Positions 8,931-48,469 of a stretch of 64,000 bases of DNA are shown one piece after another. Source of the DNA: a phage; assembly GCA_033759635.1 (NCBI GenBank), contig GCA_033759635.1_4528.1; one strand, given 5' to 3'. The first letter of the stretch is position 1. Every line of letters begins with the position of its first letter. Below the pieces are notes generated by a model, which saw nothing but the letters and a program-made list of their open reading frames with translations, was not told where the DNA came from and did no database searches. The position numbers were made by a program, and so were the translations under genes.

Positions 8931-8965
8931 GTTTACATAAAGATGATGGTGTGTTACTATCATCC
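8931..8965 (+). promoter_or_regulatory. early promoter cassette with stem-loop (PeSL-type)
   Basis: GTTTAC (-35), 18-nt spacer, TGnTACTAT extended -10 flanked by inverted repeat gatgat/atcatc; upstream of 8995. Confidence 0.5.
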
Positions 8966-8994
8966 TATCAAATAAACAGCCTCAAGGAAATAAA

Positions 8995-9282
8995 ATGAAA
9001 ACCTATAAAGAATTTATATCACCTGTTGCTAACGTTTCTACTCTGACCGAAGCATCCCTTACTTCTGAAGTTATTAAAACAAATAAAGGACGTGAGGGTA
9101 AACCAATGATTAGTCTGGTTGACGGTGAAGAAGTAAAAGGTACTGTTTACTTAGGGGACGGATGGTCTGCTAAGAAAGATGGCGCTACTATTGTTATCTC
9201 TCCGGCTGAAGAGACTGCACTGTTTAAAGCTAAGCACATTTCTGTAGCTCAGCTTAAAATTATTGCAAAAACTCTTCTGTAA
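8995..9282 (+). CDS. internal-protein-like head protein with capsid targeting sequence
   Basis: N-terminus MKTYKEFIS resembles the T4 internal-protein targeting sequence MKTYQEFIAE; 95 aa; sits where T4 ipI lies. Confidence 0.6.
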   Translation: MKTYKEFISPVANVSTLTEASLTSEVIKTNKGREGKPMISLVDGEEVKGTVYLGDGWSAKKDGATIVISPAEETALFKAKHISVAQLKIIAKTLL

Positions 9283-9285
9283 GTA

Positions 9286-9323
9286 GTTTACATGCCGATA
9301 GGACTATGTTATAGTAGTCCTAT
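9286..9323 (+). promoter_or_regulatory. early promoter cassette with stem-loop (PeSL-type)
   Basis: GTTTAC then ATAGGACTA-tgTTATAGT-TAGTCCTAT: 9-bp inverted repeat bracketing an extended -10. Confidence 0.55.
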
Positions 9324-9353
9324 CAAAACAAAATGAGTAAATGGAGAAATAAA

Positions 9354-9539
9354 ATGAAACGCGCTGAACTGATTCGTAATGTTGCTGTAGTAATTGCTTC
9401 AATGGCTTTTAGCTTTTCGATGTTTGTAGGATTCATTTGTGGACTACTGACAACAACAGAAAATTCTATCTCATTGGTAGTAGCATTTCTAATCGGCTTA
9501 ATCGCTATCGTTATGGATAAAATTGCAAAAGGTGAGTAA
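9354..9539 (+). CDS. small membrane protein
   Basis: ORF 9333..9539; second ATG has a GGAG RBS; one long hydrophobic stretch. Confidence 0.5.
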   Translation: MKRAELIRNVAVVIASMAFSFSMFVGFICGLLTTTENSISLVVAFLIGLIAIVMDKIAKGE

Positions 9540-9902
9540 ATGAAATATCATGTATATGCAGATTTTGAAGCAAATCCTTCTAAAGACCCTGATTGTCTTT
9601 TGATACGCAGACCATTTGATTCAGCAGCTCAAGCATGGGCTTGGATTAAATCTAAATCGCCTGGTTATATGTTCTTTGAAGTAGTCGATGACAATGGTAC
9701 ACTGCATCCAGAACCTACAGAAACTATTAATTTCCTTCTGTTTGCTGGTTACGACTGTTATCCTCTTGGCGGTATTGACGATCTTGTTGCTACAGGAAAA
9801 ACTGTTGAAGCTCTTCGCGAAATTTATAAAAACGCGGAAGAAAATTTTGACTGGTATCATATTGTTGATGCTCATACCTTTGAAATGGTGGAACATTCAT
9901 GA
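9540..9902 (+). CDS. hypothetical protein
   Basis: 120-aa ORF, start overlaps previous stop; no motif recognised. Confidence 0.5.
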   Translation: MKYHVYADFEANPSKDPDCLLIRRPFDSAAQAWAWIKSKSPGYMFFEVVDDNGTLHPEPTETINFLLFAGYDCYPLGGIDDLVATGKTVEALREIYKNAEENFDWYHIVDAHTFEMVEHS

Positions 9903-10189
9903 TTCTTTATGCTAAAGTATCGTCCATTGAGAACGGATATGAAAGCGACCAACGTGCAGCTAAAGCACTAGTTGATGACTATGGTATTCTGACTAACTTT
10001 GAGGTTGAAAAGGTTTATATCGACCGTTCGTCTTCGCAAGTTAAATTACTCTGTGAAGACGATAAATTTAACACAGTTAACTTTGATTTCTTTATTGAAA
10101 CAGAAAAAGGCCCTCTTGAATATGATATTTTCAAGAATCCTTTGAAATTACGTTGCATTGAATATAATTACATTAATATGGTACGGTGA
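9899..10189 (+). CDS. hypothetical protein
   Basis: 96-aa ORF with ATGA overlap to the upstream gene. Confidence 0.5.
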   Translation: MILYAKVSSIENGYESDQRAAKALVDDYGILTNFEVEKVYIDRSSSQVKLLCEDDKFNTVNFDFFIETEKGPLEYDIFKNPLKLRCIEYNYINMVR

Positions 10190-10193
10190 GTAA

Positions 10194-10709
10194 ATGAATA
10201 TTTGTTTAGGCAGTACAATCCCTAAAGGTTACGTAATTGATGTCACTACTTCGGAAAATGACGGCGACAACTATAAAACCAAAACATTATTTGGTGTAGA
10301 AGAGCATGAGCTCCAACAGTTTAAATATCTCTTGAAGAAATTTAAGAGTCGTCATTCTAGCACTAAAGCTGAACGTTACTGTGGTAATACACCATTCAGT
10401 GATTGCTCGCTTATTATCTACGAATATCTGGTTGAAGGACTGTTCTCAGACCATCTTTATCCAGAATTCATTAAAAAGGTCTTTGATATTGAAGTTGACC
10501 TCGGTAATAAATCTGAAGAAGACGAATCACGTGTATTTGACCTGTTCCGTGAGAATGGATATTTAGTATCAGAAGGTCTCATTGATATTCTTGGCCATGC
10601 TTCCGAATATTATGATTATGATTTCTTGCGTGTAGTTGAATGTGTTGAATTTGCTTATATTGAAGAAGAAATCGTTTTGCCGACTGTTAAAATGATTGAT
10701 TTGCTTTAA
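10194..10709 (+). CDS. hypothetical protein
   Basis: 171-aa acidic ORF; no motif recognised. Confidence 0.5.
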   Translation: MNICLGSTIPKGYVIDVTTSENDGDNYKTKTLFGVEEHELQQFKYLLKKFKSRHSSTKAERYCGNTPFSDCSLIIYEYLVEGLFSDHLYPEFIKKVFDIEVDLGNKSEEDESRVFDLFRENGYLVSEGLIDILGHASEYYDYDFLRVVECVEFAYIEEEIVLPTVKMIDLL

Positions 10710-10788
10710 GAATTATGTGTTATTATTAATTCATACCCTCTATTACCAAAGGTGCTCTAAAGTGCCTTTCATAATAGAAAGTTATTTA

Positions 10789-10862
10789 GGCCCTGTAGCT
10801 CAACGGTTAGCAGCAGTCCCCTCATAAGGGAAAGGTTACCAGTTCGAATCTGGTCTGGGTCA
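10789..10862 (+). tRNA. tRNA with CAU anticodon (Met, or Ile if lysidine-modified)
   Basis: Hand-folded cloverleaf: acceptor GGCCCUG/CUGGGUC (one U-U mismatch), anticodon stem UCCC/GGGA with loop CUCAUAA, T-arm ACCAG-UUCGAAU-CUGGU; CCA not encoded. Confidence 0.65.
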
Positions 10863-10868
10863 TATATT

Positions 10869-10945
<77 letters not shown>

Positions 10946-10963
10946 ACTTTAAGTGAGGAAAAT

Positions 10964-11308
10964 ATGAAAGGCAATGTTTATCTGGTAGTTCATGATTTAA
11001 CGTTTTATTTTAACGAATATGATACAGTTATTTCTCATCGATTGATTAATTCGCTGTATCAGCATGCCGATTACATCTATGTTCAAAATGAATTTGGTCA
11101 TTGGAAGTTCATTAAAAACCGTTCCGGGTTAACTAGTTTTGAATACTTTGACCGTAAAGACCTTTTAAACGAAATCCCATTGCAACATCGGTTTCAGAAA
11201 CGCGAATCATTATATTATTGCCGTCATATACCAAACGCCGAATGTGTTGATGAAGCAATTAATCTATGGCGTAGACGTAGAGAACAAATTGATGATATGC
11301 CAAAATAA
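10964..11308 (+). CDS. hypothetical protein
   Basis: ORF 10916..11308 overlaps tRNA-Arg; trimmed to the Met with GAGGAA RBS (MKGNVYLVVHDL...). Confidence 0.5.
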   Translation: MKGNVYLVVHDLTFYFNEYDTVISHRLINSLYQHADYIYVQNEFGHWKFIKNRSGLTSFEYFDRKDLLNEIPLQHRFQKRESLYYCRHIPNAECVDEAINLWRRRREQIDDMPK

Positions 11309-11309
11309 G

Positions 11310-11618
11310 AAGCCGGGTCGCTACCGGCAAGTCGTCGGACTGATGTTCCCTGAGTAAGGACTGGTCTTAATAAATCTTTATGATTCGTTAATATCCCCTT
11401 ACATCACAGCAGAAACGGCGCACAGAATTATCGATTCGAGGAAATATCTTTGCCGTAAGCCGAGTAGCGTTTTTGACGGAACGTTCGGATATGGTCGAGA
11501 TATGGCCTTTTAAAAATATTGAGTAGCGTCAACTGCTTAATAACCGGGTTCGAATCCCGGCGTTTCGTACAAACACTTGCCTTAGCAGGTGGAACCCCGA
11601 CAAGGTTACCGCAAGGCT
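11310..11618 (+). ncRNA. ORF-free structured region downstream of the tRNAs; candidate small stable RNA(s)
   Basis: About 300 nt with no plausible plus-strand ORF; contains a perfect T-arm-like element CCGGG-TTCGAAT-CCCGG and a 7-bp acceptor-like pairing (CGGAACG/CGTTTCG), but no clean anticodon arm could be folded; ends in a strong terminator. Confidence 0.3.
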
Positions 11619-11619
11619 T

Positions 11620-11648
11620 AGCCCCTTCCGAAAGGTTGGGGCTTTTTT
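11620..11648 (+). terminator. rho-independent terminator (repeated cassette, copy 1)
   Basis: AGCCCC-ttccgaaaggtt-GGGGCT followed by TTTTTT. Confidence 0.7.
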
Positions 11649-11692
11649 GCATAATAATAAATAGATAAGTTAATTAACTTAGGAAAAGTAAC

Positions 11693-12157
11693 ATGAAATC
11701 ATATGCAGAATTTTTGACTGAACAATCTAGTTCAGATGTAAAAGCCGCTGCGATTGCAGCAATTCAAGCAGGTAAATATTCTTACAAAGACGCCTCTGAT
11801 GAAGAACGTTTCCGTTTTATTAGAGATTTTAAAGCCGAAGGTTTTACTAATGCTAATACTGTTAGCCGAGTTTTTAAAAGCCTAGCTGCATCAGGTGAAT
11901 TGTTCCAGAAAGCTACAGGTAAAGCACCAGCACCAAAAGCGGACCCTAAAGCAGCTCAAGAAAAAAATATCGCCAAAGGAATTATTTCTAAGTATGAAGC
12001 AATTCTTAAAGAACTTTTGGTAATCAAAACTGAAGGTCAGAAACTAGCTCGAGCACATAGCTTCAAAGATAATCCTCACGCTCATAGCCTTGAGTATGTT
12101 GAAGATATCCAAAAACTTATTAAAGACCGTATCTGGTCTGCTAAGCAAATTAAATAG
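11693..12157 (+). CDS. internal-protein-like protein with capsid targeting sequence
   Basis: N-terminus MKSYAEFLTEQ (targeting-sequence-like); 154 aa, Ala/Lys-rich. Confidence 0.5.
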   Translation: MKSYAEFLTEQSSSDVKAAAIAAIQAGKYSYKDASDEERFRFIRDFKAEGFTNANTVSRVFKSLAASGELFQKATGKAPAPKADPKAAQEKNIAKGIISKYEAILKELLVIKTEGQKLARAHSFKDNPHAHSLEYVEDIQKLIKDRIWSAKQIK

Positions 12158-12162
12158 TAGAA

Positions 12163-12190
12163 AGCCCCTTCCTTACGGTTGGGGCTTTTT
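12163..12190 (+). terminator. rho-independent terminator (repeated cassette, copy 2)
   Basis: AGCCCC-ttccttacggtt-GGGGC + TTTTT; near-identical to copies at 11620 and 27026. Confidence 0.7.
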
Positions 12191-12223
12191 GGCATCTAGG
12201 GCATAAAAATATTTCATAAAGAT

Positions 12224-12260
12224 GTTTACTTCTTCCCTAGATGTGTTACTATAGACCTAT
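12224..12260 (+). promoter_or_regulatory. early promoter cassette (GTTTAC ... TGTTACTAT)
   Basis: GTTTAC -35 and extended -10 TGTTACTATAG about 20 nt upstream of the 12281 start. Confidence 0.5.
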
Positions 12261-12280
12261 CAAAACATGAGGAAAATGTT

Positions 12281-12586
12281 ATGAGTCTTTACACTGAACT
12301 GAATAAAAAATCTGAAGAATCTGCTGAAACTATTTTTAAAAACGTGCAAAAGCGTATTTTAGAAAAGATGTATAACACCGCAGCTAAAGGTGAAAAATCT
12401 TGCCGGTTTCCGATGAGGTGTTCTTCAGATTTATGCGCAAACACTATTGAATGGCTGGAAAGTGAAGGTCTTACGGTAGAGAAAAACCCGGCGACTTCTA
12501 TTGATAGCGAATCATATATTAGTATTTCTTGGGATAAACCTCGTACGAATGAAGGACACTACAAGTTGTTAAGTTGGAAAAATTAA
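12281..12586 (+). CDS. hypothetical protein
   Basis: 101-aa ORF with AGGAAA RBS. Confidence 0.5.
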   Translation: MSLYTELNKKSEESAETIFKNVQKRILEKMYNTAAKGEKSCRFPMRCSSDLCANTIEWLESEGLTVEKNPATSIDSESYISISWDKPRTNEGHYKLLSWKN

Positions 12587-12655
12587 AAATAATGATGTAC
12601 AAGCACCAAGGATGGTGATACTATAGACTTATCAACTACAGTGGAGTAAACAAAA

Positions 12656-12819
12656 TGACTACTTTAATTATTTGGTTCGATGAAAATGAAGAAACATACT
12701 GTGTGAATATTGGTGAAAGCCCAATGCCTGAATTTGAATCCTCAGATAAAAACTCTGTTGTATCTTGGGCCGAAGGTTATAAAGCAGCTAAAGGTGATGT
12801 TGAAATAATTTACATCTAA
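12656..12819 (+). CDS. small hypothetical protein (54 aa)
   Basis: Hand-translated MTTLIIWFDENEETYCVNIGESPMPEF...; GGAG RBS; preceded by a promoter-like cassette; below the ORF-track size cutoff. Confidence 0.4.
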
Positions 12820-12866
12820 GTAAGTTTATGTTATAGTAATCACATCAAATCAAGAGGAGAAACAAA

Positions 12867-13094
12867 ATGGCTACAGTTAGTATTGATGTCGTTGATTATG
12901 AATACACTGAAGAAGTTATTCGCAACCGTCACCCTGAAGTTCGTATCGATTCAGTCCAAGATTCCAAGTTTTGGACAACTGAGCTTAATCTGAGTGGTCC
13001 TTATGAAGCTGTTAAGAAGTTCATGGTTGAAGAATACTGCGAAGGCATGCACCCCGAAGACGCTAAGTTTTATGTCAATTTGATTAAAAAATAA
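12867..13094 (+). CDS. hypothetical protein
   Basis: 75-aa ORF with AGGAGA RBS. Confidence 0.5.
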   Translation: MATVSIDVVDYEYTEEVIRNRHPEVRIDSVQDSKFWTTELNLSGPYEAVKKFMVEEYCEGMHPEDAKFYVNLIKK

Positions 13095-13130
13095 TTTACA
13101 AACTCTTGAGAGCAGAGTATAATGCTCTCA
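13095..13130 (+). promoter_or_regulatory. early promoter cassette with stem-loop (PeSL-type)
   Basis: TTTACA -35; inverted repeat TGAGAGCA/TGCTCTCA bracketing GAGTATAAT; near-identical copy at 42931. Confidence 0.55.
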
Positions 13131-13163
13131 TGGATAATAAACCACCAATTGAAAGGTAATAAT

Positions 13164-13757: not shown

Positions 13758-13765
13758 AATAATAT

Positions 13766-13788
13766 GGAGGACTCCGGTCCTCCTTTTG
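13766..13788 (+). terminator. rho-independent terminator
   Basis: GGAGGAC-tccg-GTCCTCC followed by TTTT. Confidence 0.6.
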
Positions 13789-13806
13789 GATAATAAAGGA
13801 GTTAAC

Positions 13807-14773: not shown

Positions 14774-14814
14774 CCGTATGGCCTTCTCTTGGTGAGAACA
14801 TTCTAATTTTTATT

Positions 14815-15413: not shown

Positions 15414-15422
15414 GGAATCATT

Positions 15423-15695: not shown

Positions 15696-15704
15696 GGAAA
15701 TCAT

Positions 15705-15902: not shown

Positions 15903-15906
15903 AACA

Positions 15907-15944
15907 GTTTACAACAAGATAGGGCTATGTTATAGTAGTCCTAT
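15907..15944 (+). promoter_or_regulatory. early promoter cassette with stem-loop (PeSL-type)
   Basis: GTTTAC + ATAGGGCTA-tgTTATAGT-TAGTCCTAT. Confidence 0.55.
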
Positions 15945-15952
15945 CAAATTAA

Positions 15953-16204
15953 ATGGAGACAACAATGGTTTATTACGAAAGTATCGGAACCGAAGTAGTT
16001 GCTAAAACTATTACTCGTGAAAAGTTTGCAAAGATATTCGATATGCGTTATAAAAAATCTGAACACAAAGGCATCCGATTCGAAGATGCGCACTGTACAA
16101 TTTGCCCTTATAATGAAGACATAAACGGCACAATCGTTCCATTGGTAGAGGCTTCACATGACGACCTCTGGGATGAATATAATATCGCATGTCGCGAAAT
16201 TTAA
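15953..16204 (+). CDS. hypothetical protein
   Basis: 83-aa ORF following a promoter cassette. Confidence 0.5.
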   Translation: METTMVYYESIGTEVVAKTITREKFAKIFDMRYKKSEHKGIRFEDAHCTICPYNEDINGTIVPLVEASHDDLWDEYNIACREI

Positions 16205-17198: not shown

Positions 17199-17236
17199 GT
17201 TTACACAATTATAGGACTATGTTATAGTAGTCCTAT
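17199..17236 (+). promoter_or_regulatory. early promoter cassette with stem-loop (PeSL-type)
   Basis: GTTTAC + ATAGGACTA-tgTTATAGT-TAGTCCTAT (same cassette as at 9286). Confidence 0.55.
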
Positions 17237-17256
17237 TAAAACATGAGGAGAATATT

Positions 17257-20224: not shown

Positions 20225-20278
20225 GTTTACTTCCTCCAAGGGTTTTGATACTATACATTCATCAACTACTTGGAGGAA
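20225..20278 (+). promoter_or_regulatory. early promoter cassette with long-range inverted repeat
   Basis: GTTTAC; TTCCTCCAAG ... CTTGGAGGAA inverted repeat bracketing GATACTATA; the right arm carries the RBS of denV. Confidence 0.5.
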
Positions 20279-20281
20279 ATT

Positions 20282-20962: not shown

Positions 20963-21026
20963 ATTGTTTACGCTTAAGTATTAATATGGTATAATTACTC
21001 TATCAAAACAAACAAGGAAACAAAAA

Positions 21027-21329: not shown

Positions 21330-21442
21330 CAGTTTACTTTCTCCTAGAATTGTGATAGTATATTCATAATTACTTAGAGGGGTAAATACAGAAATGGACA
21401 ATTCATGCGCCACGGAATGGCCCAACCTAAAAGAGAAACTAA

Positions 21443-23136: not shown

Positions 23137-23435
23137 TGGCTCAAATCCTATCAGGCTTTGGAACTCATTATGAAGCATCTCGACGCATAACTGAAAGCAA
23201 TCCTTTTGGCCTTGTTCCGAAGCACAAGAAAATTCAAAGCCTTGATGACTTTGAGAATCGCCTATGGGCCCTCTTTAATGAGTACAAGGCATATCTGAAA
23301 GAAGACGCTGACGATTGTCTTGAAGAAGATGAGATTGCGTATTACGAACAACGCCTTGAACAGCTCAAGAACTTCCACCAGGTTCGTGACGAAGTATCTA
23401 AAGCAGTTAAAAAGTTAATTCCTTTCAAAGAGTAG
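23136..23435 (+). CDS. hypothetical protein
   Basis: ORF 23094..23435 trimmed to MAQILSGFG...; TAATG coupling. Confidence 0.45.
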
Positions 23436-23485
23436 TTTACTTCTCCTCTAGTTGTGTTACTATAGACCTGTCAACTAGAGGAGAA
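23435..23485 (+). promoter_or_regulatory. early promoter cassette with long-range inverted repeat
   Basis: GTTTAC; TTCTCCTCTAGTTG ... CAACTAGAGGAGAA bracketing TGTTACTATAG; right arm includes the regB RBS. Confidence 0.5.
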
Positions 23486-23491
23486 ATCAAA

Positions 23492-24845: not shown

Positions 24846-25305
24846 AAACTATATCAAGGGCGATATTGTCGCCCTGTTTTCTAAAGGTAATAATATTGCT
24901 CATGGGTGCAATTGTTTTCATACAATGGGTGCCGGTGTAGCAGGTCAATTGGCAAAGGCTTATCCAAAAATTTTAGAAGCCGATAAACTTCAAACCGAAT
25001 TCGGAGACGAGTCTAAACTCGGGACTTATTCGGTTTATGAAAAATATTTTAAGACCCATAAAGCTTATTGCTTTAATCTTTATACACAGTTTGAGCCGGG
25101 ACCTAATTTTGAGTACTCTGCTTTAATGAATTGTATAATAGAATTAAATGAATTCGGAAAAAATAAGATAACAAAGCCTGTAATTTATATGCCAAGAATT
25201 GGTGCAGGTATTGGTGGTGGAAACTGGGATGTCATCGAAGAGATTTTAGATACGTATTCCACTAAACTAGAAATTGTGATTGTTGATTGGGAACCATTGT
25301 TATGA
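24808..25305 (+). CDS. macro domain protein (putative ADP-ribose binding/hydrolase)
   Basis: Macro-domain signature N-x-A-x(5)-G-x-G-V-x-G (NIAHGCNCFHTMGAGVAGQLAKAYP); track start is TTG at 24808, GTG at 24838 is an alternative. Confidence 0.6.
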   Translation: MTLILEDLQQVIKNYIKGDIVALFSKGNNIAHGCNCFHTMGAGVAGQLAKAYPKILEADKLQTEFGDESKLGTYSVYEKYFKTHKAYCFNLYTQFEPGPNFEYSALMNCIIELNEFGKNKITKPVIYMPRIGAGIGGGNWDVIEEILDTYSTKLEIVIVDWEPLL

Positions 25306-25514
25306 ATGTGCATTATCCTCACCCGTATGACCCAAAGAATAAAGCAGTTATTATTCGTGAATGGGAAGAAATTCGTCAGACTAAGTGTCCTATTAATAGT
25401 CCACATGATGTCGATAAAGACTACATTGGAACATTCGTTGAATATACCTTTATTGATAAGAAAGGTCGTAAACAGCATGTAGAAGAATACTGCTTAAAGG
25501 TGACATGGTTATGA
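25302..25514 (+). CDS. hypothetical protein
   Basis: ORF 25287..25514 trimmed to MNVHYPHPYD... Confidence 0.45.
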   Translation: MNVHYPHPYDPKNKAVIIREWEEIRQTKCPINSPHDVDKDYIGTFVEYTFIDKKGRKQHVEEYCLKVTWL

Positions 25515-25696
25515 GTTTAAGTAAAGAACAAAAAGACAAACTCTTTTCTCTTATCCATGAAGTTATGGATAAAAATAGCGAATTGGAAAAAGTTTGTAAT
25601 GAATGTGGTCCTTTTAATACTGACGAATACGAAGAACTGTGTAAAGATTTTGACGATAAAGAGCAAGAACTTATTGATTATATAAATTCATTATGA
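25505..25696 (+). CDS. small acidic hypothetical protein
   Basis: 63 aa; similar in size and composition to the next ORF. Confidence 0.45.
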   Translation: MVMSLSKEQKDKLFSLIHEVMDKNSELEKVCNECGPFNTDEYEELCKDFDDKEQELIDYINSL

Positions 25697-25890
25697 TTAC
25701 TCGCGAACAAAAGAACGAAATATTATTTTTAGTTGGTGAAATTATTAGTTTAGAAAAGGATTTGTCTTTTGAAATATCTTCTGAATATGGAGATGCCGAA
25801 ACATATTACGAATTAGTAAAATCTATCAATAAAGCTGAAAATGATTTAGAAACATATTTAGAAAATTTAACTAAGGACTCTTATGGCTAG
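25693..25890 (+). CDS. small acidic hypothetical protein
   Basis: 65 aa, ATGA-coupled. Confidence 0.45.
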   Translation: MITREQKNEILFLVGEIISLEKDLSFEISSEYGDAETYYELVKSINKAENDLETYLENLTKDSYG

Positions 25891-27025: not shown

Positions 27026-27053
27026 AGCCCCTTCCTTATGGTTGGGGCTTTTT
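27026..27053 (+). terminator. rho-independent terminator (repeated cassette, copy 3)
   Basis: AGCCCC-ttccttatggtt-GGGGCT + TTTT, followed by ggcatcta as in copy 2. Confidence 0.7.
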
Positions 27054-27064
27054 GGCATCTATCA

Positions 27065-27116
27065 GTTTACTTCTCCTCAGGTTGTGTTATAGTAGTCCTT
27101 ACTTACTAGAGGAGAA
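27065..27116 (+). promoter_or_regulatory. early promoter cassette with long-range inverted repeat
   Basis: GTTTAC; TTCTCCTC ... GAGGAGAA bracketing TGTTATAGT. Confidence 0.5.
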
Positions 27117-27120
27117 CGTT

Positions 27121-27307: not shown

Positions 27308-27514
27308 ATGCTTTACGATTATACTGGAAAATCTGAAGACGGTGTGCTTGAACTTTTACCTGAAAGCGCTGAAGATGATGATATGGTGGCAATGTTTTGT
27401 AAAAATGGTCCTGGGGATAAGGGATGGATTTATCTTCGCCAAGAAAATGACCTAATTGTTTTAGACCCAAAACAAGTTGAAGAACTTTATCAACATTTAA
27501 AACACAATCGGTAG
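27308..27514 (+). CDS. hypothetical protein
   Basis: ORF 27281..27514 trimmed to MLYDYTGKSE... with GAGGA RBS. Confidence 0.45.
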   Translation: MLYDYTGKSEDGVLELLPESAEDDDMVAMFCKNGPGDKGWIYLRQENDLIVLDPKQVEELYQHLKHNR

Positions 27515-27551
27515 TTTACATCTTGGTAGGACTATGTTATAGTAGTCCTAC
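27514..27551 (+). promoter_or_regulatory. early promoter cassette with stem-loop (PeSL-type)
   Basis: GTTTAC + GGTAGGACTA-tgTTATAG-TAGTCCTACC (10-bp arms). Confidence 0.55.
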
Positions 27552-27572
27552 CAAAACAAACGGAGAACAAAA

Positions 27573-27683
27573 TGAAACTTTTGCTTATCGCTTATGTTGT
27601 AGTACAATACAATTATCCGATGTTTACTTATAACATGGTAAACGGCATAGTGAATCTTATTGAAACGAGTATGGTAAAATGAC
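27573..27683 (+). CDS. very small hydrophobic ORF (36 aa)
   Basis: MKLLLIAYVVVQYNYPMF...; GGAG RBS directly after the promoter cassette; below track cutoff. Confidence 0.3.
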
Positions 27684-27858
27684 CCGTGAACAAGCTAATA
27701 AATTGATGGACCTTATCCGTGACCTACGTGAAGCCGATTCAGATTTGAATGATGTAGCTTATCACGCGGTAAATGATAACGGAGACTTTTATGAAAATCA
27801 GGTTGATGCGTGCCAGAATGCTTTGGTGAATTTTGTTGAAACTTTAATTGGTGAATAA
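27679..27858 (+). CDS. small hypothetical protein (59 aa)
   Basis: MTREQANKLMDLIRDLREADSDL...; ATGA-coupled; below track cutoff. Confidence 0.4.
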   Translation: MTREQANKLMDLIRDLREADSDLNDVAYHAVNDNGDFYENQVDACQNALVNFVETLIGE

Positions 27859-29860: not shown

Positions 29861-29878
29861 AAGGGCCTTCGGGCCCTT
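29861..29878 (+). terminator. GC hairpin with UUCG tetraloop (terminator-like)
   Basis: AAGGGCC-ttcg-GGCCCTT immediately after the stop; weak T-tract. Confidence 0.4.
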
Positions 29879-29966
29879 TAGGGGGTCAAAATATTTTTAA
29901 AAAGTAGTGTACATGCTTTTAGGATATGTTATTATAGGACCTATCAAAACAAGAGGAGAAAACAAA

Positions 29967-30185: not shown

Positions 30186-30255
30186 TTGTTTACTTTTGCT
30201 TTAAACATGTTATTATAGACCTATCGAAACGAAATGAGTAAATTTGGAGAATAAA

Positions 30256-31664: not shown

Positions 31665-31699
31665 GTTTACAAGGTCTATGGTTATGTTATTATAGACCT
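31665..31699 (+). promoter_or_regulatory. early promoter cassette with stem-loop (PeSL-type)
   Basis: GTTTAC + AGGTCTAT-ggttatgTTATTAT-ATAGACCT. Confidence 0.5.
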
Positions 31700-31720
31700 A
31701 TCAACTACTGGAGGTAAAAC

Positions 31721-32248: not shown

Positions 32249-32310
32249 ACGCTTTACCCAAGGACGGGTTATAATGGTTTTGAGTTCCAATTCAATCTGA
32301 GGAAATAGTT

Positions 32311-33306
32311 ATGAGCATTACATCTGATGCGGTAAAACATGAAATTAACGGTTTATGTGCTTCACAGATTAAAGTGTGGTTTAAAGACCATAACGATCGC
32401 AGAGCACTTAATTATGAGCAAATTGCTATCCAAGTTCATCAATTACTGACTAGTAAATTTGATTTTCATATGCCGCCTGAAATCTATACTAATCTGCCGC
32501 GAGCACTTATTAAAGCGTGTAAAGGTTATGGAAAATCAATGGCTGATGGAATCTTCAGCGCGCTGAATAAACTTAACGTTCTGTCGATGATTAACTCTAA
32601 CAATATCCTGCGTAATCTAGGACGTACTGATTTGTTCGGTCGTGAACAGTGTAAAATGCCTTTGAAATGGATTGTTGCTCATCTTAACGAGAACCAAACA
32701 CGTTTTATGGCCGTAACAGCACGTTTACAAATGGGCCTAGATCGTCAGATGAACTTTAAAACTCATCCACGTTATTCAGGTTCAACAGACTTTTATAAAT
32801 GCGAGCTTCAAAAGGTCGCTGGCAAAACTGTCTTAGTAGTTCGTGTAACGTTTGAAGGACGACGTCAAGGATATTTTGACCTAATCGGCTCTGGTCTTAA
32901 ACATTGTGGATTTATCGACGAAGTTGATATCAAGCGAGACGGCATTGGATACCGTATTGGGTATGTTTGTACTCTTAAAGAAGAGATTTCAGGACCAGCT
33001 CCAGGACTAAAAGACGTTAGATATAAAGACGAGCTCGTTGAAGAAATAAAAGAAGTTGAATATGATATCAACCAAGAAGATGCTCTTAAAGACCTTATTG
33101 ATGAACTGAACCAAGATGTTATTCCTGTTCAGAAATTTGAATCAAAACATGCTGAGCAAATCAAATACTTTGAAGCTTTGATTAACGAACTTAATGTAAC
33201 TATTCAACAGACTGACGATGAAATCTCACGATTAGCAGGCTTAAATGGTAAAAATAAAACAGAACGAGCTAATCTTATTCAAGTAGTAAAACTTCTTAAG
33301 GAATGA
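32311..33306 (+). CDS. hypothetical protein with C-terminal coiled coil (331 aa)
   Basis: Globular N-terminal region plus about 70-aa heptad-rich C-terminus. Confidence 0.5.
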   Translation: MSITSDAVKHEINGLCASQIKVWFKDHNDRRALNYEQIAIQVHQLLTSKFDFHMPPEIYTNLPRALIKACKGYGKSMADGIFSALNKLNVLSMINSNNILRNLGRTDLFGREQCKMPLKWIVAHLNENQTRFMAVTARLQMGLDRQMNFKTHPRYSGSTDFYKCELQKVAGKTVLVVRVTFEGRRQGYFDLIGSGLKHCGFIDEVDIKRDGIGYRIGYVCTLKEEISGPAPGLKDVRYKDELVEEIKEVEYDINQEDALKDLIDELNQDVIPVQKFESKHAEQIKYFEALINELNVTIQQTDDEISRLAGLNGKNKTERANLIQVVKLLKE

Positions 33307-33335
33307 TGTACAACCAAGGATGGTTGGAGTATAAT
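33307..33335 (+). promoter_or_regulatory. early promoter cassette with stem-loop (PeSL-type)
   Basis: TGTACA + CAACCA-agga-TGGTTG hairpin + GAGTATAAT; near-identical copy at 34326. Confidence 0.55.
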
Positions 33336-33361
33336 AAATTTTTCAACATGAGGAATATAAA

Positions 33362-34325: not shown

Positions 34326-34355
34326 GTTTACAACCAAGGATGGTTGGAGTATAAT
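34326..34355 (+). promoter_or_regulatory. early promoter cassette with stem-loop (PeSL-type)
   Basis: GTTTAC + CAACCA-agga-TGGTTG + GAGTATAAT. Confidence 0.55.
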
Positions 34356-34383
34356 GAATCTATCTTAACGAGAGGAAAATATT

Positions 34384-41109: not shown

Positions 41110-41398
41110 AATTTATGGCATCCCTGAAGAAGTTGGACGTTGTCCAGGATGTTATACTGTTACAAAACTTTTAAAGGAGCTCAATGCTCCTTATACATTT
41201 TATAAAGTCCTCACTAATAATGGTAAGATTGAATATGACCGTCCTTTAATCGTATCTCTTGCTAAACGTGCAGGATTCACTTCACTTAATATTCGTTATC
41301 CTGTCATATTTTTAAATGATAAGAAACAAAAGAATATTGCAGAGTTTAAAAAGTCCTTGATTTCATTAGGATATGACTCTGATATCATAGAAGATTGA
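41105..41398 (+). CDS. glutaredoxin-like redoxin (NrdH-like) with no canonical start codon
   Basis: Frame encodes KIEIYGIPEEVGRCPGCYTV... (CPGC redox motif), but the first in-frame codon after the upstream stop is ATT; the only ATG/GTG starts lie 130-160 nt upstream inside the preceding gene and give an implausible N-terminus. Confidence 0.45.
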   Translation: MEIYGIPEEVGRCPGCYTVTKLLKELNAPYTFYKVLTNNGKIEYDRPLIVSLAKRAGFTSLNIRYPVIFLNDKKQKNIAEFKKSLISLGYDSDIIED

Positions 41399-41421
41399 CC
41401 AGGTGCCGCCTGGTCTTCTTT
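41397..41421 (+). terminator. rho-independent terminator
   Basis: GACCAGG-tgccg-CCTGGTC followed by a T-rich tract. Confidence 0.55.
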
Positions 41422-41563
41422 ATCTCATTTCTAATATAATCCATTGGAATCTTCACTTCACTATCTCCTTGTGCCCCTCTCAAATCAAAAATATTTTCAT
41501 AAAACAGTTTACATCCTCGATAGATATGTTAAGATTAAACCATCTGCTATAGAGGAAAACAAA

Positions 41564-41991: not shown

Positions 41992-41998
41992 GGTACTT

Positions 41999-42292: not shown

Positions 42293-42299
42293 GGAAATT

Positions 42300-42631: not shown

Positions 42632-42686
42632 TAGTTTATGATGGTAGGAAGATAACACTTCTTCCTACCAATTTGAGGAGAATATC

Positions 42687-42926: not shown

Positions 42927-42930
42927 CGCA

Positions 42931-42962
42931 CAAACTCTTGAGAGCAGAGTATAATGTTCTCA
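42931..42962 (+). promoter_or_regulatory. early promoter cassette with stem-loop (PeSL-type)
   Basis: CTTGAGAGCAGAGTATAATGTTCTCA; near-identical to the cassette at 13095. Confidence 0.5.
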
Positions 42963-42992
42963 TTGGATAATAAAATAACCGAGGAAAATAAT

Positions 42993-43549: not shown

Positions 43550-43638
43550 AACTATCTCGAATCGCTATAACCGAAGAAAAGTTTGGTGAATTTTAAGTCG
43601 ACAACTTTATAAAAGTTATGTATCTTTGATAGTATCTC

Positions 43639-43683
43639 GTGCTTTAAGATAGGTCTCTAAATATTATGATATAATAGACCTAT
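43639..43683 (+). promoter_or_regulatory. middle-type promoter (MotA-box-like GCTTTA) with stem-loop, upstream of gene 55
   Basis: gtGCTTTAag about 30 nt upstream of tatgatATAAT; inverted repeat ATAGGTCT/AGACCTAT brackets the -10. Confidence 0.45.
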
Positions 43684-43704
43684 GAATTGAGCCAAGAGGT
43701 ACTT

Positions 43705-44262: not shown

Positions 44263-44461
44263 TATCTCTAACTACTTAGAAGAACCTTTTGACGAAGCAA
44301 TCCCTTATTTGGTAAAACTGTTGGGTCGAGAATTTAAAATTAATTTTGACATCGACCCTTTGAACCCACATGACGTGTCATTTTCGATAAATGGGACTCC
44401 AGTTGAGTACGAGTTCTGTATTGAAGAGGATGGACGTTTTTATTTTAATTTAATGAGATAA
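44246..44461 (+). CDS. small hypothetical protein (start uncertain)
   Basis: ORF 44168..44461 largely overlaps gene 55; only the 3' part from Met 44246/44252 is plausible. Confidence 0.35.
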
Positions 44462-44462
44462 T

Positions 44463-44786
44463 ATGACTACCGAGATTATTGAAAATAAAGAAGCAGAAGA
44501 TGCAGTAGCTAAAATGCTACAAGAAATCCAAAAGAAAAATGAAGCTGAAGCACGTAAAAAATCCGAAAAGATTCTTAAAAAGAATCGTTTTGAACTAAAC
44601 CGTCTTTATGCACATGCTCAAGAAGCAGCAATTCAAAACAACTTCGAAGCTTACGAATATGCTATTAAGAAATCTCGGGATATTCTACGACAACCATACA
44701 ATGACAAGTTAATTAAAATCCAGTGGGTTACTACTCGTCAGGCTATTGAGGACATCATTAATGGCGCTAGTTCAAACAAAGTTTAA
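44463..44786 (+). CDS. hypothetical protein
   Basis: 107-aa Lys/Glu-rich helical ORF. Confidence 0.45.
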   Translation: MTTEIIENKEAEDAVAKMLQEIQKKNEAEARKKSEKILKKNRFELNRLYAHAQEAAIQNNFEAYEYAIKKSRDILRQPYNDKLIKIQWVTTRQAIEDIINGASSNKV

Positions 44787-44967
44787 ACGTCTGAAGCTGA
44801 ACGCAGGGTTCTCCCTTAAATTGGGAGGTCCTCTTTGTGTTAAAATTTCTGAAAAGGAATATCACGACGGTTCTATTACAGAAATTTGTCCGCCTATTGT
44901 AAAGGCAGACCCAAAACAACTCGTGTGGGTCGATTCATTTCAAGTTAAGAAATGGTGGAAACGATGA
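44746..44967 (+). CDS. hypothetical protein (start uncertain)
   Basis: 73-aa ORF overlapping the previous gene by about 40 nt. Confidence 0.35.
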   Translation: MRTSLMALVQTKFKRLKLNAGFSLKLGGPLCVKISEKEYHDGSITEICPPIVKADPKQLVWVDSFQVKKWWKR

Positions 44968-45006
44968 TAGAAATTGATTTAGGCATTTTCTGAGAGGTGC
45001 TTATGC

Positions 45007-45180
45007 ATGACGAACATCCCGACTTCTGAAAATTTCGATAAAATCCGTAAAGGCAAAGCAGAAAGAATGAGACGTTTTAAAGAGACTTATGATAAAGCTA
45101 AAGCCGAAGGAACTATTACGTACAAGCCAATTCGATTTAAAAGTTCAAATGAGCCTCTGTACGGTGTACTATGTGGATAG
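45007..45180 (+). CDS. small hypothetical protein (57 aa)
   Basis: MTNIPTSENFDKIRKGKAERMRRFKETYDKAKAEG...; GAGG RBS; followed directly by a terminator; below track cutoff. Confidence 0.4.
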   Translation: MTNIPTSENFDKIRKGKAERMRRFKETYDKAKAEGTITYKPIRFKSSNEPLYGVLCG

Positions 45181-45204
45181 GAACTCTTCGGAGTTCCTTT
45201 TTTG
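45179..45204 (+). terminator. rho-independent terminator
   Basis: AGGAACTC-ttcg-GAGTTCCT followed by TTTTTT. Confidence 0.7.
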
Positions 45205-45249
45205 CTTTATAAACGGATGATAGAATGAATTAACTAATGAGGAAATAAT

Positions 45250-46269
45250 ATGAAAATTTTGCACTTAGGCGACTTCCATATCGGAGTCAAACAAGACGAC
45301 CCATGGGTTCAAGATATTCAACGTGATGGTATTCGACAAGCAATTGAATACTCTAAGAAACACGGGATTAAAACTTGGATTCAGTACGGTGATTGGTTTG
45401 ATGTCCGTAAAGCAATAACACATCGTACAATGGAATTCAATCGTGAAATCGTTGATATGATTTCTAAAGCAGGCATTCACGTTCATGTCACGATAGGAAA
45501 CCATGACATGGCGTTTAAGAATACAATAACACCTAACACTGTTTCTGAATTGTTAACTCAATTTGAAAACTTTACTATTTACGAACATCCAACTACTGTA
45601 GATTTTGACGGATGTCTGATTGATATCGTTCCATGGATGTGTGAAGAAAATACAGGTGAAATCTTAGAGCACATCAAGACTTCTTCTGCTGCGTATTGTG
45701 TTGGTCACTGGGAACTGAACGGCTTTTATTTCTATAAAGGAATGAAGTCTCATGGGCTTGAACCCGATTTCTTAAAGACATATAAACAAGTCTGGTCTGG
45801 CCACTTCCACACAATCTCTGAAGCTGCTAACGTCAAATATATTGGGACACCATGGACCCTTACTGCAGGTGACGAGAACGACCCACGTGGATTCTGGGTA
45901 TTTGACACTGATGTTGAACGTATGGAATTTATTCCTAATGAAACAACATGGCATCGACGAATCACTTATCCATTTAAAGGCAAAATCAATTATTCTGATT
46001 ATACTAATCTAGCCGTACGTGTTATAGTATCAGAAATTGATTCAGAGTTGACTAAGTTTGAATCTGAACTTGAAAAAGTAGTTCACTCTCTTCGTATGGT
46101 TTCTAAAGTTGATAACAGTGTTGAATCTGATGACGACCAGGAAATCGAGATTAAATCACTTCAAGATATCATTAAAGAATATATTGACGCGATTCCAGAT
46201 ATCTCAGACGAAGACAGAGAAGCGCTGGTCAAATATTCCAACGAACTTTATATTGAGGCAACACAATGA
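45250..46269 (+). CDS. 47: recombination endonuclease subunit gp47 (Mre11/SbcD-like)
   Basis: Phosphoesterase motifs (LHLGDFH, GNHD, GHWE/GHFH); 339 aa as T4 gp47. Confidence 0.9.
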   Translation: MKILHLGDFHIGVKQDDPWVQDIQRDGIRQAIEYSKKHGIKTWIQYGDWFDVRKAITHRTMEFNREIVDMISKAGIHVHVTIGNHDMAFKNTITPNTVSELLTQFENFTIYEHPTTVDFDGCLIDIVPWMCEENTGEILEHIKTSSAAYCVGHWELNGFYFYKGMKSHGLEPDFLKTYKQVWSGHFHTISEAANVKYIGTPWTLTAGDENDPRGFWVFDTDVERMEFIPNETTWHRRITYPFKGKINYSDYTNLAVRVIVSEIDSELTKFESELEKVVHSLRMVSKVDNSVESDDDQEIEIKSLQDIIKEYIDAIPDISDEDREALVKYSNELYIEATQ

Positions 46270-46523
46270 CTTTAGATGAATTTAATAATGCTGGGCTCGG
46301 GCTTGAAGTTGAAATAGACGTTAAAGATGATGATGGATTCGAGAACACTATCAAGTATTGGATTGAGCCATTACGCGTTGAAGGCAATGAAGTTAAAGCC
46401 GTTCATGTCTGTACCGACTGGGCTATTGAATTTAGCTTTAATATAATGGACAACGATACTCCTGGCTCTATTCTTAAAATGGCTGAAGCATGTATCAAGG
46501 ATGCGTATAATGACGAAGACTGA
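46266..46523 (+). CDS. hypothetical protein
   Basis: 85-aa acidic ORF between 47 and 46. Confidence 0.45.
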   Translation: MTLDEFNNAGLGLEVEIDVKDDDGFENTIKYWIEPLRVEGNEVKAVHVCTDWAIEFSFNIMDNDTPGSILKMAEACIKDAYNDED

Positions 46524-46749
46524 TTATGAAATCCATCGTCATGAATTTAGTATTGGTGACGGTTATATTGGTATCGTTGAATGGACTGAGAATTACGAGG
46601 AGACAACTCCTCGTTTCTTTGGAACAATGTATGTTACCTGTGAGTACGCACCGGGTGTTGTTATGTATGCAGAACTAGATGAATATTTTGCTGATAGAGA
46701 TGACATGTTAAAATATGTAGAGGACTTCATTCGAAGAGAATACATATGA
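46501..46749 (+). CDS. hypothetical protein
   Basis: 82-aa ORF, coupled to gene 46. Confidence 0.45.
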   Translation: MRIMTKTDYEIHRHEFSIGDGYIGIVEWTENYEETTPRFFGTMYVTCEYAPGVVMYAELDEYFADRDDMLKYVEDFIRREYI

Positions 46750-48434
46750 AATCATTTAAATTAAATCGTGTTCGTTATCAAAACATCATGTCGGTAGGTG
46801 GGAATCCTATTGATATCCAATTAGATAAAGTCCAAAAGACATTAATCACCGGTAAAAATGGCGGTGGTAAATCTACGATGTTAGAAGCCATCACTTTCGG
46901 ACTTTTCGGTAAACCATTTCGTGATGTTAAGAAAGGACAAATCATTAATAGCACGAACAAGAAAGAGCTCTTAGTTGAGCTTTGGATGGAATTCGATGAT
47001 AAAAAATACTTCATTAAACGTGGCCAAAAGCCCAATATTTTCGAAATCTCCGTTGACGGTGTTCGTCTTGATGAATCTGCCAGCAGTCGTGACTTCCAAG
47101 AAGAATTTGAACGTAGCATCGGAATGTCATACGCGTCTTTTAAACAGATCGTTGTGCTTGGGACGGCAGGGTATACCCCTTTCATGGCTCTTAGCACCCC
47201 TGCTCGCAGAAAACTTGTCGAAGACCTTTTAGAAGTTGGCACACTCGCTGAAATGGATAAAATCAATAAGTCTCAAGTTCGAGAACTTAATTCCCAGGGA
47301 CAAGTTCTCGATGCCAAGAAAGATGGTGTTATCCAACAAATTAAGATTTATAATGAGAATATCGAACGTCAAAAGAAATTATCTGGTGATAATGTAGCGC
47401 GTCTACAGAATATGTATGACGACCTAGCCAAAGAAGCTCGTTCATTAAAATCAGAAATTGAAGAAGCTAACGAGCGTCTACTTAATATCGTTCTTGACGA
47501 AGACCCTACTGAGGCATTCAACAAGATAGGACAAGAAGCATTCTTGATTAAATCTAAAATTGACTCATATAACAAAGTTATTAAGATGTATCATGATGGC
47601 GGTACATGTCCTACTTGTGCATCACAGTTGCACCAGGGTGATCCTATTGTCTCTAAGATTACCGATAAGCTTCATGAATGTAATCACTCATTCGAGCAAC
47701 TTACCTGTCACAGAGATAATCTGAGTGTCCTAGTGGACGAATATAGAGCTAATGTTAAGACTAAGCAGGACCTTGCATCTGATATTCGTACCAAGAAACA
47801 AGCAATGATTGCCACTATTGATAAAGCTAAGAAAGTTAAAGCTGCAATAGAGCAAGCCTCGGCAGAATTTATCGACCATGCCGATGAGATAGCTTTGCTT
47901 CAAAAAGAACTTGATAAAATCATTAAAACAAAATCAGATATCGTTCTTGAAAAATACCATCGTGGTATTATCACAGATATGTTAAAAGATTCTGGTATTA
48001 AAGGTGCTATCATTAAAAAATATGTGCCTCTGTTCAACAAGCAGATTAACCATTATCTTAAAATCATGGAAGCTGATTACGTGTTTTCTATTGATGAAGA
48101 ATTCAATGAATCTATAAAATCACGTGGCCGTGAAGAGTTCAGTTATGCTTCATTTAGTCAAGGTGAAAAGGCACGTATCGATATCGCATTGTTGTTTACA
48201 TGGCGAGATATTGCTGAAAAAGTCTCTGGTGTTAGAATCAATACATTAATTATGGACGAAGTCATGGATTCCGCGACTGATTCTGAAGGTATTAAAGCTA
48301 TTTCAACAATTCTTAACTCTCTAACCGATGCAAACGTGTTTATAATTAGTCACAGAGACCATGACCCACAAGCTTATGGACAACATCTTCAAATGAGCAA
48401 AGTTGGACGATTTACTGTGATGACTGTTTCATAA
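46746..48434 (+). CDS. 46: recombination endonuclease subunit gp46 (Rad50/SbcC-like ATPase)
   Basis: Walker A GKNGGGKST, central coiled coil with CPTC zinc hook, signature SQGEKARIDIAL, Walker B LIMDEV; 562 aa. Confidence 0.9.
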   Translation: MKSFKLNRVRYQNIMSVGGNPIDIQLDKVQKTLITGKNGGGKSTMLEAITFGLFGKPFRDVKKGQIINSTNKKELLVELWMEFDDKKYFIKRGQKPNIFEISVDGVRLDESASSRDFQEEFERSIGMSYASFKQIVVLGTAGYTPFMALSTPARRKLVEDLLEVGTLAEMDKINKSQVRELNSQGQVLDAKKDGVIQQIKIYNENIERQKKLSGDNVARLQNMYDDLAKEARSLKSEIEEANERLLNIVLDEDPTEAFNKIGQEAFLIKSKIDSYNKVIKMYHDGGTCPTCASQLHQGDPIVSKITDKLHECNHSFEQLTCHRDNLSVLVDEYRANVKTKQDLASDIRTKKQAMIATIDKAKKVKAAIEQASAEFIDHADEIALLQKELDKIIKTKSDIVLEKYHRGIITDMLKDSGIKGAIIKKYVPLFNKQINHYLKIMEADYVFSIDEEFNESIKSRGREEFSYASFSQGEKARIDIALLFTWRDIAEKVSGVRINTLIMDEVMDSATDSEGIKAISTILNSLTDANVFIISHRDHDPQAYGQHLQMSKVGRFTVMTVS

Positions 48435-48469
48435 ACGCTTTAACACGATGTGGTTATAATGACCACATC
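48435..48469 (+). promoter_or_regulatory. middle-type promoter (GCTTTA box) with stem-loop
   Basis: aacGCTTTAac then GATGTGGT-TATAAT-GACCACATC. Confidence 0.45.

Follow-up and report, generated by a model that had tools for sequence, protein, structure and literature searches.

Repeated early promoter cassettes with embedded inverted repeats in an RB69-like phage

The early region of a 64,000-nucleotide stretch of phage DNA (contig GCA_033759635.1_4528.1 of NCBI GenBank assembly GCA_033759635.1; hereafter the window) contains about 25 copies of a promoter cassette. Each cassette probably consists of an A/T-rich tract, a strong sigma70-type early promoter (GTTTAC, a spacer of 17–18 nt and TGn-TAnnnT), a leader, short and conserved, containing CCTATCAAAAC, and a Shine-Dalgarno (SD) sequence with an ATG, and we regard the cassettes, with somewhat better than even confidence, as T-even-type early transcription and translation elements that are analogues of the PeSLs of phages RB49 and phi1. 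In a subset of the cassettes an inverted repeat, or stem, is embedded in the promoter, and compensatory changes across phages indicate that the pairing of the stems is upheld and that they are under selection. A preliminary description of positions 8931-48469 had already read the elements as PeSL-like, which agrees with the published PeSL definition and with the tests reported here in the sense of T-even-type analogues; the terminator half of the PeSL concept does not appear to be supported by the sequences of the stems in the window. Elements of this kind have been published before (Repoila 1994; Arbiol 2010, PMC2839356; Comeau 2014, PMC4122927), and the finding is real and largely ordinary. 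It adds the RB69 group (Mosigvirus) to the published picture of PeSLs, with examples of recombination between cassettes seen at sequence level, gives quantitative evidence for selection on stems, and qualifies the usual promoter-terminator reading because the stems lack terminator features and a subset of them is predicted to sequester the ribosome-binding site. What is added to the known picture is modest, namely the covariation evidence and early promoters nested in putatively SD-sequestering hairpins; the current understanding of T4-type gene expression is not overturned.

The best match of a 10-kb piece of the described range was Shigella phage Shf125875 (96% identity; 853 phage records matched). 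By sequence, the window is assigned to Mosigvirus (Straboviridae, Tevenvirinae; RB69 group), and the phage is not RB49-like. From about 5.3 kb, the + strand carries genes 4, 2, 3, 1, 57A, 57B, ipI, trna.x, two tRNAs, e.x, nudE and e, followed by denV, ipII, vs.x, regB, vs, tk, rI, mobD, nrdC.x, pin, 49 and nrdD/G, and then by 55.x, 55, a-gt.x, 47, 46, rpbA, 45, 44, 62, regA and 43, an order that identifies this part, as judged from the encoded genes, as the early, hyperplastic arm of an RB69-like genome. Cassettes and promoter-like sites given below with both end coordinates lie on the + strand, as does the terminator repeat at 12163-12198.

Make-up and geometry of the cassettes

The proposed T4-type promoter pattern, GTTTAC-N17/18-TAnnnT, proved to be far above chance, with 22 matches in the whole window against 1.96 expected (0 of 100 shuffles reached 22); 20 of the matches are on the + (early-gene) strand and 19 within 8931-48469. 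A generic TTGACA-type sigma70 scan gave no excess (74 vs 67; 63 vs 69), and only the T4-specific promoter motif, not the TTGACA type, is enriched. The −35 elements are GTTTAC/TTTACA, of the T4 early type, and the −10 variants are TATAGT, TACTAT, TATTAT and TATAAT. The 25 nt upstream of the −35 have an A/T content of 74% compared with a background of 63% (0 of 5000 resamples reached it), SD and ATG are present in every cassette, and the distance from −10 to ATG clusters at 27–28 nt in most. Direct-repeat families link the cassettes to one another. All sites named in the preliminary description were recovered in place, including its sets of near-identical copies: 9286, 17199 and 27514 share an identical 24-nt core (TAGGACTATGTTATAGTAGTCCTA) and 64–73% identity over 86 nt, 13095 and 42931 are 83% identical over 54 nt, and 33307 and 34326 are 86% identical over 43 nt. 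In the first set, GTTTAC is followed after 7–8 nt by TAGGACTA, TGTTATAG and TAGTCCTA, with the −10 TATAGT, preceded by TGT, in the loop; TAGGACTA has 9 matches against 1.3 expected.

The idea that cassettes delimit most of the small genes did not hold, as about 25 of 90 genes (28%) have one directly in front, and so do 14 of the 61 genes of at most 120 aa. At almost half of the gene junctions the genes abut tightly or overlap. Five consensus promoters (15019, 35306, 37005, 40065 and 42209) are located within coding sequence just upstream of the next gene and have no repeat, which is possibly excluded there by coding constraints.

The best arm spanning the −10 averaged 6.39 bp over 23 promoters. 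In 2000 trials with spacers exchanged between promoters, the mean was 4.87 and the highest value 5.91; shuffling of the spacers gave a mean of 4.58 and at most 5.43. The repeats thus exceed both permutation nulls. The claim that about 20 intergenic promoter sites are bracketed by an inverted repeat was right as to the motif and the existence of the repeats, but a repeat of at least 6 bp spanning the −10 is found in only 11 of the 23 promoters, spacer-internal repeats occur in three, and the geometry varies. No Rfam family matched the hairpins. In every case the left arm is upstream of the predicted start site, so that the hairpin would form only in read-through RNA and not in the cassette's own RNA.

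Three geometries are present. In the first, arms of 6–12 bp enclose a loop of 6–12 nt with the −10 inside, and the right arm extends to about the predicted start site. Ten sites have this form: the ipI cassette (8931-8994; −35 GTTTAC 8931-8936, −10 TACTAT 8955-8960, arms GATGAT 8942-8947 and ATCATC 8959-8964, with an 8-bp arm in Shf125875), the cassette of a trna.4-like gene (9286-9353; GATAGGACTA 9297-9306 and TAGTCCTATC 9315-9324, −10 TATAGT 9310-9315 in an 8-nt loop), the e.6 cassette (13094-13163; TGAGAGCA 13107-13114 and TGCTCTCA 13123-13130 around TATAAT, with the core TGAGAGC/GCTCTCA), the cassettes at 15907-15964 (GATAGGGCTA 15918-15927 and TAGTCCTATC 15936-15945, one G.T pair), 17199-17256 (ATAGGACTA 17211-17219 and TAGTCCTAT 17228-17236), 27514-27571 (before a 37-codon open reading frame (ORF); 12-bp stem TTGGTAGGACTA 27523-27534 and TAGTCCTACCAA 27543-27554) and 31665-31720 (AGGTCTAT 31672-31679 and ATAGACCT 31692-31699), a cassette with a destroyed −35 (42927-42992; TGAGAGC 42939-42945 and GTTCTCA 42956-42962 with one G.T, TATAAT 42950-42955, direct-repeat family D19), an extended −10 promoter-like site of gene 55 (TGaTATAAT, 43649-43704; ATAGGTCT 43649-43656 and AGACCTAT 43676-43683), and a MotA-type site (48437-48488; GCTTTA-12-TATAAT, −10 bracketed by TGTGGT 48449-48454 and ACCACA 48462-48467). 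The vs.8 cassette (21332-21442) has the arms AATTGTGA (21348-21355) and TCATAATT (21364-21371), including a wobble pair, around TAGTAT, the T4 counterpart being AATTGTGA/TCACAATT, and a degenerate cassette (42632-42686; GTTTAT, poor −10) has the 9-bp repeat GGTAGGAAG (42643-42651) and CTTCCTACC (42660-42668).

The second geometry is a hairpin of 5–6 bp wholly within the spacer, at 12595-12654 (−35 ATGTAC; CACCA 12604-12608 and TGGTG 12613-12617; family D12), 33306-33361 (ATGTAC; CAACCA 33311-33316 and TGGTTG 33321-33326; families D12 and D20) and 34326-34383 (GTTTAC-18-TATAAT; AACCA 34332-34336 and TGGTT 34341-34345, as at 33306). It includes the covarying pair CACCA/TGGTG vs AACCA/TGGTT, the form at 33307 and 34326 being AACCA-agga-TGGTT. 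In the third, seen in 4–5 cassettes, a left arm in the spacer pairs with the SD of the downstream gene as right arm. This form is found at denV (20225-20281; 10 bp, spacer arm TTCCTCCAAG 20231-20240 and SD-containing CTTGGAGGAA 20269-20278), regB (23435-23491; perfect 14-bp repeat TTCTCCTCTAGTTG 23441-23454 and CAACTAGAGGAGAA 23472-23485, with the −10 in the loop and the SD in the right arm), rI (27065-27120; 8 bp, TTCTCCTC 27071-27078 and GAGGAGAA 27109-27116, with a terminator copy in front at 27026-27053) and 41507-41563 (9 bp plus one mismatch, TCCTCGATAG 41514-41523 and CTATAGAGGA 41547-41556 covering the SD, with a terminator upstream at 41397-41415).

Selection on the stems and their possible role

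A search of public viral contigs for GTTTAC-N15-TGTTATAGT yielded 102 distinct instances, mostly from unrelated viruses. The instances from unrelated viruses, which served as negative control, had 0–3 bp of nested pairing, whereas the same promoter pattern in T4-like contigs of 160–180 kb had 7–12 bp with differing arms (TAGGACTA/TAGTCCTA, TAGGGCTA/TAGCCCTA, TAGGGTCA/TGACCCTA, TAGGGCCA/TGGCCCT, TAAGGGTCA/TGACCCTTA and GGTAGGAAG/CTTCCTACC). Covariation was counted formally for 31 T4-like promoters that were picked by −10 type only, using a fixed 10-pair stem. Paired cells amounted to 79.7% compared with 67.3% after column shuffling, 40 cells were changed on both sides compared with 15.7, and the covariation score was 0.392 compared with 0.196 (0 of 500 shuffles in each case), while registers slid by 1–3 columns were 31–53% paired. 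For regB, each sequence's own stem was analysed, and a MAFFT alignment did not hold the stems in register; the pairing between spacer and SD is kept with different sequences in four lineages, of T4-type and other relatives, and two regB loci have switched to a −10-bracketing stem (GGGCCAT/ATGGCCC). The arms at denV are TCTCCTGTAG/CTACAGGAGA in T4, different from those of the window and likewise complementary. A query with the nrdC.6 protein returned two loci only.

The regB read-through RNA has a folding energy of −23.2 kcal/mol (z −2.91) with the SD paired, compared with −2.5 for the RNA from its own start, and the corresponding values for denV are −19.8 kcal/mol (z −2.95), again with the SD paired, and −2.1. 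The folding models thus place the SD of both genes in a paired state in read-through RNA and in a free state in RNA from their own promoters. We tentatively propose, with less than even confidence, that the hairpins embedded in promoters of T-even phages are not terminators and were selected as an RNA device by which the promoter of origin sets the fate of a cistron, with the SD hidden in regB, denV and probably rI and the −10-bracketing stems acting as insulators. In the subset with the SD in the right arm (regB, denV, and probably rI and 41507), read-through RNA would hide the ribosome site and translation would be blocked. A hidden GGAG would in addition block cleavage by RegB, following the published rule that RNA structure protects GGAG from this enzyme (Uzan and Miller 2010, PMC3014915). 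Transcripts that start at the early promoter of the gene itself would be open, and expression would be confined to an immediate-early pulse. The −10-bracketing hairpin, located just 5′ of an A-rich unstructured leader, would most likely be an intercistronic RNA insulator or a processing boundary and not a terminator.

Hairpins that sequester the ribosome-binding site and contain an internal late promoter have been reviewed for T4 e, soc, 49 and I-TevI (PMC3014915). As modelled for regB and denV, the SD is paired in the long read-through RNA, the promoter is inside the hairpin, and the gene's own transcript is without the 5′ arm and hence translatable; geometry and folding match. The internal promoter of the T4 genes is the late TATAAATA, whereas here it is of the early sigma70 type, and the switch here would limit expression to the earliest phase whereas that of T4 delays it. 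By analogy, the SD-covering stems may work as the e/soc/49 switch does, with an early promoter in place of the late one. The late motif TATAAATA occurs five times in the window and in none of the SD-covering cassettes, in which the internal promoters are of the early sigma70 type. We found in the literature neither an experimental test of SD sequestration for genes of the regB/denV type nor a T4 transcriptome paper mapping 3′ ends at cassette sites. Stem-loops before T4 ipIII, ipII and denV were reportedly described by Valerie and colleagues in NAR in 1986.

In a set of 350 unique promoters, 80 of the stems were strong, and mismatches within them comprise 21 G.U and 9 A.C (p about 0.02), a trend that would suit pairing in RNA. 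Several observations weigh against the proposed RNA device. The rI fold is not significant (z −0.54), and that of 41507 is weak and not significant either (z −1.0). Divided by geometry, the ratios of G.U to A.C are 13:7 for −10-bracketing and 8:2 for SD stems, with some redundancy and only as a trend, and 4:2 in the in-register subset, which is not significant. About half of the promoters are without a stem of at least 6 bp, and the hairpin is not essential to the cassette. Start sites were predicted from promoter geometry, and the RNA role of the −10-bracketing stems is one that we infer only. An asymmetry in folding energy between sense and antisense strands (37 of 46; random control 23 of 46) was dropped as proof of action at the RNA level: perfect stems likewise differ by 1–2 kcal/mol through the conserved loop sequence, which confounds the comparison.

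A role of the stems in DNA is less probable than the RNA device, and we consider it unlikely. As a hairpin or cruciform, the palindrome would expose a single-stranded −10 and tune promoter opening or early-promoter shut-off, or it would be a structure-specific target (e.g. of endonuclease VII) starting recombination. The loop does contain the −10 in every case, and in the bracketing class the two arms are upstream of the start and the cassette's own RNA never contains the hairpin; the mismatch ratios of this class alone (13:7 and 4:2) are not significant. The shut-off mechanism of early promoters has been described as not understood (PMC3014915), and the stem was speculated to be a target of recombination proteins (Arbiol 2010, PMC2839356). 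However, arm sequences vary freely among promoters with no common recognition sequence, the pooled mismatches on the sense strand lean to G.U, a bias not expected of a two-strand cruciform, and the mapped crossovers are in the SD-ATG homology and in the leader of internal protein (IP) genes, not in the stems. Short A/T-rich stems with loops of 8–30 nt extrude poorly, and the SD-covering class makes sense only at the RNA level.

It is more doubtful still that the stem-loops are terminators or attenuators of upstream transcription, which would make the cassette a self-contained terminator-plus-promoter insulating its neighbours. One stem-loop of RB49/phi1 cuts lacZ read-through about as strongly as rrnB T1 (Arbiol 2010, PMC2839356), the stems of the window are intergenic, and five cassettes directly follow canonical terminators. 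Yet none of the 46 unique promoter-embedded stems has at least 5 T in the next 8 nt (mean 1.8 T and 4.1 A), and terminator scans picked up none of them. The stems are short and A/T-rich, unlike the polyG/polyC stems of RB49, and in the SD-covering class the ribosome-binding site itself makes up the right arm. The canonical terminators, with GC stem and T-run, are separate elements, five of which are directly before cassettes (12163, 27026, 29861, 41397 and 45179). One of these terminators, AGCCCCTTCC...GGGGCTTTTT (direct-repeat family D14), occurs three times (11620-11655, 12163-12198 and 27026-27061), the second and third copies being 97% identical over 36 nt.

That the inverted repeats have no function, and reflect chance complementarity or the copying of one ancestral cassette, is very improbable and already largely refuted by the permutation nulls, the public scan and the covariation count: 9286, 15907, 17199 and 27514 are evident paralogues with one arm pair and about half of the promoters are stemless, but at least 10 different arm sequences are present in the window alone, compensatory changes occur among paralogues (GA..TC vs GG..CC) as well as across phages, and chance matches of the promoter pattern in unrelated viruses are without pairing.

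Exchange of modules and relation to known elements

Modular shuffling at the cassettes, which the preliminary description had envisaged, is supported by gene-sized indels that end in cassettes and by one exact hybrid junction. We compared the collinearity of the window with Shf125875, PhAPEC2 and RB69. Twenty-one of 54 breakpoint ends were within 30 nt of a cassette, compared with 7.4% of positions, an enrichment that is inflated by the preference of viable indels for intergenic DNA. Only about 17 events are independent, which likewise tempers our interpretation. About eight of these events touch a cassette, and 5–6 have both ends in cassettes. PhAPEC2 is without the window ORF 12655-12819, and its junction is an exact hybrid of the 5′ part of cassette 12595 and the 3′ part of the frd.3 cassette (12808-12866; ATTTAC ... 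TGTTATAGT, no significant inverted repeat), with the crossover in GGAGnAAACAAAATG, which is common to both. In Shf125875, ip7 is inserted exactly within the 9286 cassette. A module of the window, consisting of the 42632 cassette and an ORF of 79 aa, is inserted in the −35 of cassette 42927; PhAPEC2 is without the module and keeps ATTTAC. An indel of 184 bp relative to Shf125875 and RB69 ends 22–24 nt from the 43649 site. The cassette at 12224-12280, which has a canonical terminator in front (12163-12190) and only a weak pairing between spacer and SD (TTCTTC/GAGGAA), is the right breakpoint of a replacement of about 1.1–1.2 kb relative to PhAPEC2 and RB69.

IP genes are swapped by crossovers in the leader that they have in common, ATGAAAACnTATnAAGAATT. 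On its left side, the IP-gene replacement has its breakpoint in the IP leader just downstream of the cassette of an ipII-like gene (20966-21026; consensus GTTTAC-18-TATAAT, TGn, no inverted repeat), and the right breakpoint is the 21332 cassette. Two breakpoints relative to RB69 and PhAPEC2 are in copies of the repeated terminator (11647 and 12190). Recombination would insert, delete or swap modules at short homologies provided by the IP leader codons and by the cassettes and terminators that are repeated. In annotation, the cassettes serve as marks of transcription units and of likely borders between modules among the many small early ORFs, some of which are candidate anti-defence genes (internal proteins). 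An MKTY.EF-type leader, ATGAAAAC(A/C)TAT..GAATTT, opens five + strand ORFs (8995, 11693, 19942, 20702 and 21027) and resembles the IP capsid-targeting leader. The window seems to encode five IP-like proteins at two loci, a complement unlike those of Shf125875, PhAPEC2, RB69 and T4.

A PeSL of RB49/phi1 was defined as a sigma70-type promoter that has an A/T-rich region upstream and is accompanied by a stem-loop, most often located between −35 and −10 or across the −10, with SD and ATG following; the elements were shown to be active as promoters, one stem to act as a terminator, and mini-circles to form (Arbiol 2010, PMC2839356). The cassettes of the window are likewise compact repeated intergenic units with these parts, are situated among small non-essential early genes, and are places where indels of close relatives end. 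They differ in the promoter, which is TTGACA-N17-TATAAT and near perfect in RB49/phi1 and T4-type GTTTAC here, and in the stems, which are polyG...polyC in RB49/phi1 and A/T-rich without a T-tract here. In the account given by Arbiol 2010 (PMC2839356), the elements of T-even IP loci (Repoila 1994) are analogues and not homologues of PeSLs, with T4 early promoters and weaker, A/T-rich stems. As far as these loci are described there, they resemble the window in having IP genes with a shared leader that are flanked by cassettes and swapped between phages.

PeSLs were later extended to T4/PST and KVP40/nt-1, the T4/PST type having the promoter TTTACW-N17-TAYWAT and stems of the form AGNA-loop-TCNT (Comeau 2014, PMC4122927). 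This consensus recurs in the window, with TTTAC[AT] at most sites and TAGGACTA...TAGTCCTA fitting the stem description. AGGA...TCCT is found at 9286, 17199 and 27514 and AGGG...TCCT at 15907, all in the hyperplastic region ipI-tRNA-e-vs-tk-nrdC. Degraded 'half' elements beside indels, as in T4/PST, are represented here at 42927. The T4/PST and IP-locus elements were described for Tequatrovirus, whereas the window belongs to the RB69 group. According to a legend in Comeau 2014 (PMC4122927), the stems stand directly before the promoter; here, most of them surround the −10 or extend to the SD, a difference that is uncertain at the level of detail of a legend. For RB69, 57 early promoters were predicted, many of them before novel ORFs, together with a GCTT Mot box 11–13 nt from the −10 (Nolan 2006, PMC1524935). 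These promoters are of the same classes and from the same phage group as those of the window; inverted repeats and recombination at promoters are unmentioned in that paper.

Further cassettes, middle-promoter-like sites and neighbouring genes

Two further cassettes have no strong inverted repeat, one at 29907-29966 (GTGTAC-17-TATTAT, with a terminator in front at 29861-29887) and one before an nrdC.10-like gene (30188-30255). The pattern GCTTTA-N11-13-TAnnnT occurs 17 times in the whole window compared with 3.5 expected. Three intergenic GCTTTA sites had been pointed out between 8931 and 48469, and all three were recovered: 32251-32310 (GCTTTA-13-TATAAT), 45204-45249 before gene 47 (GCTTTA-11-TAGAAT, directly after the terminator 45179-45198), and the −10-bracketed site at 48437. 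They obey the spacing rule of the MotA box (11–13 nt to TAnnnT, in promoters that have no −35), which is consistent with the suggestion that they are MotA-type middle promoters. The window does not contain a motA gene; an orthologue was reported in RB69 (Nolan 2006, PMC1524935).

A segment of 914 bp (49109-50024) between rpbA and gene 45 is represented by 65 bp in Shf125875, PhAPEC2 and RB69. It holds two GCTTTA-type sites (49660 and 49876), has no early cassette at its bounds, and its ORFs (49103-49324 and 49546-50001) had no Pfam match. Two neighbouring small ORFs (63 and 65 aa) at 25505-25890 each match Pfam DUF7438 and form a tandem duplicate; the stretch 25295-25875 is occupied by a shorter replacement sequence in all three relatives, and there is no cassette at either end. 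The ORF 37118-37669 matches the Lon protease inhibitor PinA (Pfam PF10465, E 6e-48), the gene for which is present in the window, RB69 and PhAPEC2, whereas Shf125875, the closest relative, is without it. A stretch of about 300 nt (11309-11620), which follows tRNA-Arg and an ORF150c-like gene and extends to a terminator copy, has no ORF that convinces, and Rfam matched no family in it; in T4, the small stable RNAs C and D adjoin tRNA-Arg. The 37-codon ORF after the 27514 cassette (27572-27685; MKLLLIAYVVVQYNYPMFTYNMVNGIVNLIETSMVK) has standard SD-ATG spacing, and the identical sequence is present in Shf125875 without a gene annotation.

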